Source: Torpedo marmorata
Lineage: Eukaryota
Direction: 5' to 3'
Assembly: GCA_977017645.1 (NCBI GenBank)
Contig: OZ360245.1
Span: forward strand, 7,130,001 to 7,194,000
Length of the DNA: 64,000 bases
The position numbers and the translations under genes are program-made. A model generated the notes under the pieces. It was given only the letters and a program-made list of their open reading frames with translations. It ran no database searches and was not told where the DNA came from. This document shows positions 36,612 to 58,895 of this stretch, in pieces; the stretch's first letter is position 1, and every line of letters starts with the position of its first letter.

Positions 36612-37197
36612 ATATGCAGGGGGATAGATTTAGGATGGAGATGAGGAGGAACTGCTTTTCCCAGAGAGGAGTGAATCTGTGGAATTCCCTGCCCATGGAA
36701 GCAGTAGAGGCTGCCTCATTAAATGTATTTAAGACGTAGTTAGATAGGTTAGACCAGTAGTTTTCAAACTTTTTCTTTCCACTCCCTATGTAATCCCTAT
36801 GCCATAGGTGCTCTGTGATTAGTAAGGGATTACTTAAGGTGGTATGTGAGTGGAAAGAAAATGTTTGAGAACCACTGTTTTAATCGTACCTAACTCGTTA
36901 TGTGCACGGTTTCATAACTCCAAAGGAAATGGGCCAATGACAATTTTTCTCAAGCTAAATATTTCAGTAACAATTGGGTCTAGAGCAGTGGTTCTCAATC
37001 TTTTTATCCCACTCACATACCACCTCAAGTAATCCCTTACTAATCACAGAGCACCTATGGCATAGGGATTACCGTATTTTCACTCATATAATGCGCACAC
37101 GCATATAACGCGTGGAAAATCTTAAACTATGTAAAAATATTCTCGTATAGCGCGCACATGCATATACCGCGCGGGTGTAGTATTCTACATTCCAACT

Positions 37198-37535
37198 CAA
37201 GAGCAATTTTCATTTACTTGGGACAGGAGACAGTACACATTCCATAGTCCCACTATCTGCCACAGTAAATCTCCCACGATTTACAACCCATTCAACTTCC
37301 CCCAATAGTGTCAATCGCCCATTATATAGATGATATCCTCCTGAAAGGTCCGACTGAGACCGTTGTCTCAGAGGCACTTGATATGTTAATCTCCTCCCTC
37401 ATGGGACGGGTCTGGGCAATTAATATTGATAAGGTGCAGTGCCCTAGCCAGAATATCCTGTTTCTCGGAATACCATGGCACTCAGGCTAAAGAGATATTC
37501 CCGAGACTGCCAAGATCAAAATTTTGAATTTTGCC
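37198..37535 (+). pseudogene. Retroviral reverse-transcriptase fragment, class III/ERV-L-like
   Basis: QEQFSFTWDRRQYTF, SPTICH, HYIDDILLKG, WAINIDKVQCP, FLGIPW, RDIP..K.KIL; LPQG deleted, one frameshift, one stop. Confidence 0.8.
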
Positions 37536-37620
37536 ATTTTGTATGTACCCAGTTCGTTGTGTGTGTGTGCGTCCTCACTGTGATTTTCCCACGTTCGTCT
37601 GCAAATTTTGCATGTGTTTC

Positions 37621-37765
37621 ATTGCCGCTATTACTTTCCCATGCTTGCTATAAATTGTGCGCGTTGTTTATTGTCACTACTACTTTCCGTCGCCCGCTAT
37701 AAATTGTGCGCGTTGTTTTATTGCCGCTACTACTTTCCCACGCTCGCTATAAACTGTGTGCGTGT
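37621..37765 (+). repeat. About 3 copies of a ~50-bp tandem repeat
   Basis: Unit approx. attgccgctactactttccca.gct.gctataaattgtgcgcgttgttt. Confidence 0.85.
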
Positions 37766-38722
37766 TATCCCCGTTACCATTTTTCCCACAACCGTCTTTT
37801 GTAAATAAAATCATTTATTACAAAACTTTTTTTTTCAATTCAAGCGATTAAAAATAAATTTTAATTTAGAACCAGTTGCTGCTCAAATAAGTTCAATTTT
37901 ATATTGAACATGTAAAAAAATTATTGTATAGCGCTCACACGCATATAACGCGCGTTGGATTACCCGGTTTGTAAAAAAACGCATATAACTTGCGCATTAT
38001 ATGCGTAAAAATACGGTACTTAAAGTGGTATGTGAGTGGAAAGAAAATGTTTGAAAACCACTGGGTTAGACAGTAGGGGAATTAAGGGTAATGGAGAAAA
38101 GGCAGGGAGGTGGAGCAGTCGATGGCCAGATAAGCCATGATCTTAGTAAATGGTGGAGCAGGCTCAATGAGCCATGTGGTCCTACTCCTGCTCTTGCGTT
38201 CTTATAAGGGGCGAGTTACTTTAAACTGAGATGCACAAAAAAATCTTTTTGCAGACTGATAAATCTTTGGAATTGTGTACCTCAGGTCATGGAAGCTAGA
38301 TTACAAGTATTTACAGTGGAGATGGATGTTTTTGAAAGATCAGGAAATCAACAGCAATGATGAACTGTCAGAGCCAAAGAGTTGAGGCCAGTATAGATCA
38401 GCCAGGATTGTATTGAATGGAAGGGAACACTAGTCAAAACCCAATGCACCAAGTTGAACTATGTTGCTAACCCCAACAGCTGAGGAAGTGCAATGCCTGC
38501 CCTCTGCTCTATGGCAATACGGGGACAATAACCCTTGGTTTGCTGGATTTGGTTGAGTAAAATGTGGGTATTTGATAGCCCTGGATAGGGCCCCAATCAT
38601 GATGCAATCCACCACCAACCCCCCAAAACCCCCTCAGAGTCCTAAGCAGCTACCTGTAGTTTAAAAAAAGATAAATGTACATTGAATCAGAGGTCATTGT
38701 TCATCTCTGAATGTGCACCTCA

Positions 38723-45032: not shown

Positions 45033-46232
45033 GTCAGAATCAGAATTTAATGTCATGAACAAGTCATGAAATTCGGGGTTTTGCGGCAGCATCATAGTGC
45101 AAACATTCATATTATAACCATCTTACGACATTACTATAAAAAATATATATAAATAATAGTGCACGAAAAGTAAGGCAGTGTATTTGGTTCATTGATTATT
45201 CAGGAATCTGATGGCAGCGGGGAAGAAGCTGTCCTTGTGCCGTTGAATGCTCGTCTTTAGGCTCCCGTACCTTTTTCTCGATGGTAGCAGAGTGAAGAGG
45301 GCATGGCCTAGGTGGTGGGGGTCTTTGAAGACCGAGGCTGCTTTTTTAAGACACCGCCTCTTGTAGATGTCCTCGATGGAGTGAAGTCTGGTGCCTGTGA
45401 TGTCACAGGCCGAGTTAACAACCCTCTGGAGTTTACTCTTGTCCTGAGCGTTAGTGCCTCCATACCAGGCAGTGATGCAACCAGCCAGAATGCTCGCCAC
45501 AGTACACCTGCAGAAGTTTACGAGAGTTTTCGGTGACAAACCGAATCTCCTCAGACACCTCACAAAGTATAGCCGATGGCGAGCCTTCGTGATTGCATCA
45601 ACATGGAGGCTCCAGGACAGATCCTCGGAGATGTTGACACCCAGGAATTTGAAGTTCTTGACCCTCTCCACTACTGAGCCCTCGATGAGGACTGGGTCAT
45701 GTTCCCCTGACTTCCACCTGAAGTCCACAATCATCTCCTTGGTTTTGCTGACGTTGAGCGCAAGGTTGTTGTCGTTACATCATTCAATGAGCTGATCTAT
45801 TTCCCTCCTGTACGCTTCCTCATTGCTGTTTGTGATTCTGCCGACAACTGTGGTGTCTTCGGCAAACTTGTAGATGGCATTGGAATTGTGCCTGGCCACA
45901 CAGTCATGGGTGTATAACGAGTAGAGCAGTGGGCTAAGCACACATCCTTGTGGTGCGCCTGTGTTGATAATCAGTGAGGAGGAGATGTTGTTTCCAATTC
46001 ATACTGACTGTGGTCTTCCGATGAGAAAGTCAAGGATCCAGTTGCAGAGGGGGGTACAGAGGCCTAGAGTTTGTAGCTTCTTAACCAGCACTGAGGGAAT
46101 AATGGTATTGAAGGCCGAGCTGTAGTCGATGAAGAGCAGCCGTATGTATGAATTGCTGTTTTCGATATGATCCAGAGCTGAGTGGAGAGCCAGCCATATT
46201 GCATCTGCTGTGAAGCGATTGTGATGATAGGC
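45033..46232 (-). mobile_element. 5'-truncated Rex1/Babar LINE, young
   Basis: [28 protein letters not shown] plus an intact 181-aa C-terminal ORF. Confidence 0.92.
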
Positions 46233-47776: not shown

Positions 47777-48459
47777 CACAGTCCTCAAGACATCATCTCG
47801 ATCTCCACAATATTCATATCCTTTCTCTACTCAGTTCTATCACCTCTCCATCTCTAACACACCATAATCCTCTCCTTATCCCTCCATTTCAACCCGCACC
47901 CAAATTCTTTCTGAATACCTCAACCTTGGCAAGTGCAATGACAGCATTCATTTCGGGAGGAGTAGAATATAAAAGCAAAGATGTAATGATGAGGCTTTAA
48001 GGAATTAGTCAGACCACATTTGGAGTATTGTGAGTAGTGTTGGGCCCCATGGCTAAGGAAGGATATGTTGGCATTATAGTGACCTGCTGAGTTTCTCCAG
48101 CACTGTTACGTAATGCACTACAATCACACCATCTGCAGACTTTTCTGTTTAACTTAAAAAGCCCAGGCTCTCCTCTACACGATGAAGATCAGAGTATGAA
48201 AAAGACAGGGAATTAGACATCTTTATATGCATCTAAAAAGTAAAATTAAATATCTTCTAAATGGCACTCCCAATAAGAGGTTTTATTTTACATATAGATG
48301 TTTCAATTTACAAAGCACTTAACACATGTAATGAATTGCTCCAAAGTAAATCACTTTTATGTTAACAGCTACCATTACATTCTGTAATGAAGTAACTAGT
48401 TTATGTATTCTTTATGGAATTGGTTAATGAACGAACGTCAGTCAAGTGAACAGGACATT

Positions 48460-50962
48460 AACTTTTTTGAATGCTATTATTACAGTTCTACCAAAAGATA
48501 GAGATGTATTAAAAACGGAGTCATATAGACCTATTTCTTTATTAAATGTAGATTATAAGATTATGGCAAAAATTTTGGCTAATAGAATAGCTAAATTTTT
48601 ACCGAATTTGATACATTCAGATCAAGCGGGTTTTATTAAAAATAGATATTCTAAAGATAATATAGCTAGATTATTAAGTTTAATTAATTTTCATAAAAAG
48701 AAACAAGATTTACCATTGGTGATAACGTTGGATGCAGAAAAGGCTTTTGATAGATTAGAATGGAATTTTTTATTTAAGGTGTCAGAAAAATTTGGTTTTG
48801 GGAATACTTTTATAAACTGGATTAAAACTATATATAAGGAACCTACAGCTAAAGTAATTACAAATGGACAAATATCGTCAAAATTTTCTTTAACGCGTTC
48901 TACAAGACAGGGTTGTCCTTTATCACCAGCTTTATTTGTTTTGGCAATAGAACCTTTAGCTGAATTGATTAGGACAGATCCTAATATAGTTGGGATTAAA
49001 GTCGGTATGGAAGAGCATAAGATTAGTTTGTTTGCAGATGATGTATTAATATATATGACGAAATCAGTTTTATCACTTCAACATTTAGCTATTATATTAA
49101 CAGAATATGGTGAAATATCTGGATATAAAATTAATGCGGATAAAAGTGAAATAATGGCTTTATCTCAAGGTGATTATACTAGATGTAAAGAAGTTACGGA
49201 ATTTAAGTGGGCAAAAGAAGGAATTAAATATTTGGGAATAAAAGTGGATACAAAATTAGAAAATTTATATAAATTATATACCCTTATTTACAAAAATAAA
49301 GAAAGATTTGGAAAATTGGAAAGATTTACCTATAACTTTAATGGGGAGAGTAAATTGTATTAAGATGAATATTTTTCCAAGAATTCAATATCTTTTTCAA
49401 TCAATTCCTTTTGGAATTCCAAATTTTTTTAAAAGATTTAAAATTTATAGTTAGGAAATTTTTATGGAAAGGGAAATTAGCAAGAGTGAGTATGGAGAAG
49501 TTAACATGGAATTATGAGATGGGAGGAATGCAACTCCCTAATTTTCAATATTATTATAAAGCAGCTCAATTAAAATTTGTTAATGAATTTTTTGATTTAG
49601 CTAAAATTTCTGCTTGGATTAATATAGAATTAAATAATATAGGAGAAAATTATAAAGAGGATATTATTTATAAGTGGAATTCTAAATTATTATCAGTAAA
49701 AAAGAAAAATTCACCGATTATTAAACACTTATTGGAAGTATGGACAGAGGTAGATAAAGAAATAGGTGGGAAAGGAATAATTTCTTTAAATATGCCATTA
49801 TATCAAAATCCACTTTTATTGTTCACTATGAATAATCAGTTACTGAAAACATGGTTTCAAAAAGGTATTAAAAATTTTTAAAGATTGTTTTGAAGCTGGA
49901 AGATTTGTTACGTTTCAAAGATTGAAAGAAAAATTTGATATATTAGATAATATATGGTTAGTTTATTATCAGGTTAAAGCTTTTTTGGTTGAGAAATTAG
50001 GAGAAAATTTGATTGCTCCAAGGTATAATGAGTTAGAATTACTAATTACTAAAGCAAATGTTAATAAGTTTATTTCTCAAATGTATAAATTATTTCAGAG
50101 AAAAATGCTAAAAGTAGGATTACATAAATCAAGATTAAAATGGGAATTAGATTTAAATATTAATATAGCTCAAAAACATTGGGAAGATTTATGTAAGTTA
50201 AGTATGACTAAAGTTATTAATGTTAGGTATAGATTGGTACAATATAATTTTTTTCATCAATTATATTTAACACCAAAAAAATTAAAGAAATTTAATCCGA
50301 CATTGTCGGATTTGTGTTTTAGATGTAAGAATGAAGTAGGTTCCTTTGTTCACTCTACATGGTTATGTCCAAAGATTCAAGATTTTTGGCTTAAAGTTAA
50401 GAATTTTTTAGAGAGAGTTTGTAATGTTAGGTTTCCAATGGATCCTATGTTATTTCTATTTGGAGATATTAGAAAATTTAGTATTAGGAATAGATTGAAT
50501 ACGTATCAGGTAGAATTTTTGCGTATTGCTTTAGCTGTTTCAAAAAAATGTATTGCTATTACTTGGAAATCAGATTTAGATTTGAATTTAGATAGATGGC
50601 ATGCAGAACTACGTTCGTGTATTTCTTTGGAAAAAATTACTTATAATTTACGTAATAAATATCATTCTTTTAAAAAAATTTGGAGCCCATATATGAGAGT
50701 TATGGGTTTGAGGATTTGAAATTTTTGGAAATCAGATCTATTGGCGAGTTTAACCTCCAGATTGAAATAGGTTTTTAGATGGCTCTCTCCTCATTATTAA
50801 TCTCTTTTTCTTTTTCTATTTCTATTTTTAGAATAGTGGGGTTGGGGAGGGGTGGGAGGGTGTGGGGGGAGGAAATTATATCACTGTATTTTGGAAATTA
50901 TATATTTTGAATTATGTATTATGTGATTTAAAAAATTTAAATAAAATAATTAAAAAAAAAAA
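48460..50962 (+). mobile_element. 5'-truncated L1-clade LINE (ORF2 RT, CCHC domain, 3' UTR, poly-A)
   Basis: YRPISLLNVDYKI, LDAEKAFDR, RQGCPLSP, LFADD, CFRC-x8-H-x4-C; two frameshifts; G-rich 3' UTR tract, AATAAA, poly-A; 16-bp TSD AAGTGAACAGGACATT (48444-48459 / 50963-50978). Confidence 0.96.
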
Positions 50963-57390: not shown

Positions 57391-57882
57391 ATGTTAATAA
57401 TGACACGAAGTTATGAGGGAAATTGAAGCTACCATCTTTCATAGAATTTCAACTTGGTAACCTTATAGCCTGGACTGTAATTCAAGCTGCACTTGGTTCA
57501 GTCTGTATCACGTGGTGTTTGATCAGAAGCAATTTCGTCAGCTGCAAATGTCAGTGAACTAGTCCATTGGTTTACTACGATGGAAATCTGTGGCCACTTC
57601 TCCAGTTTAAGGAGGAGATGGATGCTGGAGACACGAAATGAGAATCTGTAATAAGTGGGGGGAGAAGAGCTTCAATCTTTTGATAACCCAGATGGATTGA
57701 GTAACGAGTGACCAACACCACAAACCAAAAGATAGGTTTTGGTTTGGTGACATTCAAAAGGAGGAATTAATCCAATTTGACACGAAACGCCAAACCATTA
57801 AAAAAGTTGAAGTTTTGAAAATGGCTGAATCGGGTTTTCTCATTTGCACGTTGTACTGACCTACAGCTTCCATTTCCTAAAG

Positions 57883-58037
57883 CAGTGGTTCTCAACCTTT
57901 TTTTCTACTCACATACCACCTTAAATAATCCCTTACTAACCACAGAGCACCTGCGGCATCCCATGCCTGCTCTGTGGTTAGTAAGGGATTACTTAAGGTG
58001 GTACGTGAGTGGGGAAAAAAAAGGTTGAGAACCACTG
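57883..58037. mobile_element. hAT (Charlie-like) palindromic MITE, monomer
   Basis: TIR CAGTGGTTCTCAACCTTTTT; 8-bp TSD TCCTAAAG; almost fully self-complementary. Confidence 0.92.
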
Positions 58038-58895
58038 TCCTAAAGCAAGAGCCATTTTTAAGCAGCTTCTGTGCCACACTGAGAAAATTGCTGTTGGCAA
58101 CTGAATTGAAAAGGAATCAAGATTTTCTCCCAATGGCCAGCTCACTGAAATGCTTTGTGCTTAGATGGGAGATTAACTGCAGGCTACATCTTTCAAGTGT
58201 TTCATCACTCATGAAGACGATCATGCCAGATGTGCAAAATTGTATCCAGATGCAGAGAATCCATTTTTCAGGGAGTCCAAAAAGGGGAGTTTGTAAATAC
58301 AAGGTGGTCAACAGTAAATTCCGTTGGAAACTCAGAGAAGAGTAGTTGGACGACGAGCTCACTGTTACATAGAGCGGTCAAGTTGACTTTCATGGATGCA
58401 TTTCAGGGGAGACTGGGGAACAACAAATCAGTAAAGAACTTGAAGAACAGTGAAAGCTTAAGATGGAGCAGCATGTGATCAGAGGTTGGGAGGAAAATAC
58501 CAGCAGAGAATCACAAGAACTGCAGATGCTGCAAATTTGAGCAAACAACGAGACGCTGGAGGGATTCAGCAGGTCAAGCAGCTTCCATGAAGGGAAACGG
58601 ACAGCAAATGTTTAGGGTTGCGACTTCAGTTCCAGATTCAAACCCACTGCATTACATCTCAACCATGGCATCCTCACCAGTAGCTTACACTGGGCAGAAT
58701 TTCAGCCAATGCAATATTTCACGTCACATATTACCATCACGTAGTTCAGAGCTTGTTAAACTACCAGAAAGTCCCGAGGCTTACATACAGAGGCACTGTA
58801 TACAAAATAAAGGACATTGCATTTCTCTCTATGTATGCTGCCTGACCTGCTGAGTCTAACTTTTCATCATTTGCTCCAAAGAATACTCCACTTAC

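Follow-up and report, generated by a model that had tools for sequence, protein, structure and literature searches.

Capture of retroviral sequence by a DNA transposon has a precedent in the human genome, where RICKSHA, an element with terminal inverted repeats (TIRs), contains the 3′ portion of HERVL together with the LTR MLT2B; a relative devoid of cargo is known as RICKSHA_0 (PMC1431705). RICKSHA is listed under MuDR (PMC5753468). Animal Pack-TIRs have captured foreign sequence, for which template switching was proposed, and spread it by transposition; the screen by which they were collected admitted cases only where the parental copy was unique and had no transposable elements beside it, and reported 4 multicopy cases of 370 in reference genomes (Tan et al. 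2021, PMC8277862). Bat Helitrons amplify captured pieces of retrotransposons and genes, one such passenger having reached about a thousand copies (PMC4224331). Passer transposons are characterised by DD35D, Brk and HTH motifs, TIRs of <30 bp, TA target sites, a length of 1.6–4.0 kb and a transposase of 400–500 aa (PMC7386202, PMC9976928).

Here, we describe a 945-nt transposon at positions 37072–38016 of the window, i.e., the whole stretch of 64,000 nucleotides of Torpedo marmorata DNA that was analysed. We consider it highly probable that this is a non-autonomous pogo transposon of the Passer type, in which reverse transcriptase (RT) and LTR pieces of a provirus have taken the place of the transposase gene, likely captured on one occasion by template switching and then likely moved in trans, as inert cargo, to some 900 sites.

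Anatomy of the element and its transposase partner

The inverted arms (37070–37097 and 37991–38018) comprise 28 nt including the TA that flanks the element on the left and on the right, and are 93% complementary; the TIR itself is 26 nt long. The transposon has entered an older inverted-repeat element of ~130 nt, an empty copy of which has a single TA at the corresponding spot (36825–36839). Since, in addition, many joints in the contigs of all four public runs examined skip 947–948 nt at the insertion point, the TA has indeed been duplicated. The original prediction of a 945-bp element with TIRs and a TA duplication is thus borne out, and the empty paralogous sites agree with it. The coordinates of the constituent parts are given in Table 1.

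Table 1. Constituent parts of the element and its insertion site, in window positions.
Feature	Positions	Strand	Basis
TA target-site duplication, left	37070..37071	.	Single TA in empty host site
Left arm of Passer-type transposon: 26-nt TIR and subterminal repeats	37072..37184	+	92–95% identical to first 113 nt of transposase-coding copies
RT fragment of retroviral origin, reaching from the palm to where the thumb begins and including YIDD	37185..37537	+	83–88% DNA identity to proviral loci; tree
LTR fragment, captured from the retrovirus family that supplied the RT piece	37539..37827	+	70–84% match to donor LTR
Right arm of Passer-type transposon, with right TIR	37829..38016	+	88–91% identical to last 188 nt of transposase-coding copies
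TA target-site duplication, right	38017..38018	.	
Host: older ~130-nt inverted-repeat element, entered by the transposon	36986..38063	.	Empty copy at 36754–36885

The host element, the ends of which we take to be hAT-like, is present in several copies in the window (at 57878–58038 in addition to the two places in Table 1), and a variety of small insertions, many in number, is seen in public contigs at one and the same internal TA region of it. Elsewhere in the window, two open stretches (45192–45779 on the minus strand and 48431–50716 on the plus strand) resemble, by eye, decayed pieces of LINE ORF2.

Two thirds of the transposon (644 of 945 nt) are of retroviral origin, divided over an RT piece of 353 nt and an LTR piece of ~290 nt. 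The RT motifs quoted in the original prediction (QFSFTW..QYTF, HYIDDILL, etc.) are all present in translation, albeit split over two frames, and the window copy has lost about eight codons in frame, is frameshifted and contains a further stop. The RT piece is 62% identical to a stingray retroviral Pol over 89 aa and matches RVT_1 at E = 4.6e-4, a match that falls below the curated cut-off; the 70-aa frame of the cargo gave chance matches only when compared with PDB. The accompanying claim that no LTR or other retroviral sequence surrounds the RT fragment has to be abandoned, as element nt 468–756 match the donor LTR. This LTR fragment contains three repeats of ~50 nt (37615–37763), each with a TATAAA, followed by an AATAAA at 37804. 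Subterminal repeats, which had been ascribed to the transposon, do occur in its left arm, but the three ~50-nt repeats match the donor LTR and are viral.

Element nt 1–113 and 758–945 are common to the window element and to transposase-coding copies of 1.75–1.97 kb, which have the same TIRs and TA. The transposase of these partner copies, ~439 codons long, includes BrkDBD (1e-9) and HTH_Tnp_Tc5 (1.5e-12) domains; the D2–D3 spacing is 35 residues in four of seven copies, the other three being too broken to read, and no intact transposase occurs among the copies fetched. The published traits of the Passer family (DD35D, Brk and HTH, TIR, TA and lengths) are all found in the partner copies, and by these traits the carrier would be a Passer-type pogo transposon, a refinement of the pogo-like identity that had been predicted.

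The donor provirus family

A search of the genome with the stingray protein returned full-length RT loci, and 10 of the 20 fetched are 83–88% identical to the cargo. The donor proviruses measure ~7.8–8.1 kb, including LTR pairs of 730–970 nt, and have the layout LTR-gag-pro-pol-env-LTR. Three proviruses were scanned against Pfam: all three match RVT_1, RT_RNaseH_2, RNase_H, rve and TLV_coat, corresponding to RT, tether, RNase H, integrase and env, one matches RVP, and none has a match for gag or for dUTPase; gag is placed by its position. The CWIC and CX6CC motifs are visible in env, to which the TLV_coat match belongs, and the primer site is presumably that of tRNA-Ser. Every proviral copy seen is broken.

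In an RT tree of 41 rows (foamy virus and SnRV not among them; 41% of the columns filled in the cargo row), the window cargo falls into a ray clade with the stingray protein (100/99). This clade is nested in a class III-type group (100/99) that includes P0007, a Pol from mouse; WEHV1 and the RTs of four LTR retrotransposons fall outside this group, and the outgroup is split off at 100/100. The nearest protein stands at 70%, against ≤55% for the next full-length matches, which points to a ray as the host. From its mouse origin and its RT-RNaseH-IN-dUTPase order, P0007 would be of the MuERV-L type, i.e., ERV-L-type. PDB scores amounted to 130–132 bits for MLV, 91–107 for foamy virus and 62–65 for Ty3. 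By its layout and domains, the donor belongs to the Retroviridae, and its RT, which groups with ERV-L-type Pol, places it on sequence grounds among the class III ERVs.

A Gypsy (Metaviridae) RT, the alternative that had been attached to the original prediction, was rejected in view of the separation of the outgroup at 100/100; the donor RT does not group with epsilon sequences either. ERV-L proper was likewise rejected as the donor, env being present and dUTPase unmatched. What had been announced as a fossil of an ERV-L-like lineage thus retains its class III-type RT, but it is neither ERV-L proper nor the sole fossil, as ~695 proviral places in the genome match the pol sequence immediately beyond the cargo. 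The parental provirus, which was to be sought, has been traced to this resident family but not to an exact donor locus, the nearest proviral copies being 0.10–0.11 K2P away from the cargo.

Because it has an env and no dUTPase match, the build of the donor resembles that of ERV-S and XtERV-S more than that of the env-less ERV-L. As described in PMC8278194, XtERV-S and ERV-S combine an ERV-L-related pol with YIDD and a class I-type env in ~8 kb, and the donor is alike in these respects. XtERV-S and ERV-L possess a dUTPase, whereas the donor lacks a match in all three proviruses scanned; also unlike XtERV-S and ERV-S, the donor stands in its own ray clade with the stingray protein, with all of its copies broken. 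What is reported in PMC6001957 leaves room for class III retroviruses in cartilaginous fish, and SnRV-like and epsilon-like lineages have been described in the elephant shark (PMC4422223).

Other proviral sequences were encountered alongside the donor family. Eight loci (L033, L036, L040, L041, L045, L046, L048 and L049) represent other class III lineages of the same ray clade, with DNA more distant from the cargo. Loci L134–L143 form a defective proviral subfamily, alignable with the full provirus as far as the vicinity of the RT end and again from a point shortly ahead of the 3′ LTR; the 1–3.5 kb between these parts are unmatched, and the subfamily has the appearance of a non-autonomous lineage of retroviruses. 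In a public contig from another genome, a class III-type Pol (P0219) carries fused thymidylate kinase, thymidine kinase and dUTPase domains.

Copy number, capture and state of the cargo

The junction between the RT and LTR pieces has 911 matches genome-wide (≤2 mismatches), as against 0 for the control; the number is one of junction matches, and 1 of 40 sampled loci held two. First-look candidate numbers (2531, 2370, 394 and 1530) are not copy numbers and have not been used. When 30 loci were selected with the left 114 nt of the element, 27 (window copy included) proved to carry the RT cargo and three to run into the transposase gene. The proposal that a cut-and-paste element has captured, and may have amplified, a piece of retroviral pol is thereby supported, with the cargo at many loci rather than at one.

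Two sets of loci were inspected, with a few loci in common: 51 distinct loci selected for their resemblance to the copy in the window, and 40 loci with exact junction matches taken in genome order. In the former, the LTR piece is present in 47 of 51 and both TIRs in 33, of which 30 have a TA on both sides; in the latter, a TIR occurs within 3 kb in 38 and both TIRs in 28, of which 22 are flanked by TA/TA. The flanks vary between loci (47 of 50 left 8-mers and 33 of 34 right 8-mers are distinct). Contigs under three organism labels, one of which may be the window's own species, bridge the junction of the arm and the RT piece.

A viral fragment caught between transposon ends by chance, as a one-off, or a copy number raised by segmental duplication, can be dismissed for practical purposes given the junction count against the control, the diversity of the flanks and the genome-ordered sample. 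Such a duplication might account for 22 of the listed junction matches of transposase-bearing composites (see below; L162 and L163 included), all on small contigs and all one truncated copy of one variant, which may be one insertion, probably in a repeated block.

The letters at the junctions are common to the copies, the RT and LTR pieces stand in proviral order and strand, and the element retains neither a viral end nor an integration junction. Microhomology favours no route of capture, since it amounts to just 1–3 nt or is ambiguous. We propose that template switching, in the course of DNA repair or replication, copied the RT and LTR pieces of a class III provirus once; in the element, which is non-autonomous, the cargo replaces the transposase gene, and the transposase of the family would have moved it in trans to ~900 sites. 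On balance, we lean towards this route, which requires no lost intermediates and fits the fillers and duplications acquired later.

Proviral order and strand would also result if a defective provirus had inserted into a Passer copy and three deletions had left the RT and LTR pieces, after which the trimmed element spread. The closest proviral subfamily has itself suffered many deletions, its sequence passing from pol straight to a point shortly ahead of the 3′ LTR, and four of the 10 close proviral copies aligned also lack the same eight or so codons; in RICKSHA, too, an LTR is retained along with the 3′ part of HERVL (PMC1431705). Nevertheless, we find such nesting rather less likely: three deletions that took away both viral ends are needed, no intermediate of greater length occurs in the 51 and 40 loci, and the four proviral copies that share the deletion have another gap absent from the cargo. 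By its presence in these four copies, the deletion probably predates the capture, although the extra gap leaves room for recurrence or recombination.

The LTR piece runs on for ~19 nt beyond AATAAA, and the final ~57 nt of the LTR are missing from it. The R/U5 boundary is expected shortly past the polyadenylation signal of an LTR, and the end of the piece could thus betray a transposon break patched from a viral transcript or cDNA. We regard this as improbable, as there is no poly(A) tract and the join has 2–3 nt in common with the transposon arm. Our preference remains with template switching from a provirus.

In a phylogeny with 14 proviral copies, 40 cargo copies form one star-like group (100/98); when 11 closer proviral copies are added, the cargo constitutes one side of a branch in 10% of the bootstrap trees, so that a single origin, which we consider likely, leans on the shared junctions more than on the tree.

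In all 30 copies compared, the upstream RT motifs are out of frame with the downstream ones, and the loss of about eight codons is shared. The pN/pS of the cargo is 0.70 (0.62–0.80, disjoint pairs), slightly under the neutral expectation of 0.73–0.83 at a transition bias of 2–4 (observed bias ~3.5), and two proviral subfamilies have a dN/dS of 0.21. The cargo drifts near neutrally and is probably an inert passenger.

Pairwise K2P distances are 0.055 for cargo copies (biased low by the choice of copies), 0.058–0.065 for transposase genes and 0.035–0.068 for four clear LTR pairs. Of eight direct-repeat pairs, those in L086, L088 and L090 were left out as they may not be full LTR pairs, and the partial LTR pair in L084 gave 0.132. 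The overlap of these divergences suggests that virus and transposon were active in overlapping periods; the substitution rate of 2.2e-10 given in PMC4422223 is an assumption of its author.

Later subfamilies, composites and comparison with known systems

The simple form seen in the window is in the minority in the genome-ordered set (L164–L203), where 37 of 40 loci have a filler of ~200 nt within the RT piece and most of these 37 have part of the RT and the filler duplicated near the right end. The filler has no match in the proviral or transposase loci collected, its 30 best genome matches are all copies of the family, and loose ends in public contigs pointed to no source either. These further internal duplications and fillers amount to repeated template-switch-like events: recombination went on in the family, the filler splitting the RT piece and part of it being duplicated.

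Six of 25 transposase loci are composites. Elements of this type are present at L146, L152, L153, L156, L159 and L160, and also at L100, L111, L114, L115, L116 and L118. Over 3.1–4.4 kb, a single TIR pair encloses RT pieces, arrays of LTR repeats and a full-length, now broken transposase gene; the diagnostic junction has 105 matches. Both TIRs are present in six of the 20 composite loci fetched (five with TA/TA and one with TA/TG; L151 was left out of the counts), and none of those with both TIRs has an intact transposase frame. One branch of the family has thus regained a full-length transposase gene; since 20 composite transposase genes have no stop or indel in common over 439 codons, its founder was probably autonomous. 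The transposase tree does not cleanly separate composite from plain copies (5 changes), and a single origin of the composites is thus suggested by their shared layout.

The composites carry 1–30 LTR-derived repeats ~130 nt upstream of the transposase start, where they replace the transposon's own nt 114–173. Conceivably, these repeats served as promoter or enhancer of the composite transposase, or the cargo raised transposition in another way. Matched left-junction patterns count 348 cargo-bearing against 157 plain junctions (the cargo-type pattern misses diverged subfamilies), and the absence of a common stop or indel points in the same direction. We nonetheless think it unlikely that the cargo was favoured, as the native TATA-like site ahead of the transposase is kept in the composite and the number of repeats varies freely; moreover, short non-autonomous derivatives often outnumber their partners without help from a cargo. 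It would be a bold and, in our judgement, rather unlikely extension that a DNA transposon took up a retroviral promoter, expanded its TATA-bearing repeats, regained a transposase behind them and spread as an autonomous hybrid of retrovirus and transposon, scattering ~900 LTR promoter and polyadenylation cassettes without retroviral replication. We prefer to view the cargo as a passenger.

With donor, partner and stepwise subfamilies in one genome, the family documents with rare completeness how a class II element has taken over class I DNA, and it points to a clade of env-bearing class III retroviruses in rays. Counts of ERVs based on RT can be inflated by DNA transposons, here with 911 junctions against 695 proviral pol matches, by patterns of unequal sensitivity. 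Were the LTR repeats active, cut-and-paste movement would constitute a route for spreading retroviral promoters.

In the literature covered, which did not extend to Repbase, Dfam or the supplements of Passer and ERV surveys, we found no report of a Passer/retrovirus family. The Passer accounts (PMC7386202, PMC9976928), as far as consulted, mention neither a cartilaginous fish host nor viral cargo, and both occur here. Compared with Pack-TIRs as defined in PMC8277862, the 644 nt of foreign DNA between the arms of one TIR element exceed the stipulated >100 bp, but the source is a multi-copy provirus family in place of a unique parental copy of ≥90% identity; furthermore, the cargo is viral and present in ~900 copies. 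Bat Helitrons (PMC4224331) move by rolling circle, and the element described here by cut-and-paste.

The closest likeness is with RICKSHA, as described in PMC1431705 and PMC5753468, in that a TIR element with internal class III retroviral sequence has spread as a unit. RICKSHA itself was rejected as an identity, given the pogo-type ends and the ray retrovirus cargo: RICKSHA is a MuDR element with 79-bp TIRs and HERVL/MLT2B, and ours a Passer-type pogo with 26-nt TIRs and TA. RICKSHA holds a HERVL 3′ portion with the LTR, whereas the cargo here is made up of two distinct fragments, one from RT and one from the interior of the LTR. Also unlike RICKSHA, transposase partner and donor proviruses survive in one genome, where one branch has regained a transposase. 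The independent origin of a RICKSHA-like element suggests that viral LTR pieces have been captured repeatedly by TIR elements. The kind of element is thus already known from RICKSHA; new are a carrier of the Passer type, the lineage of the host, a cargo in two pieces, the survival of both donor and partner, and the branch in which the transposase was regained.
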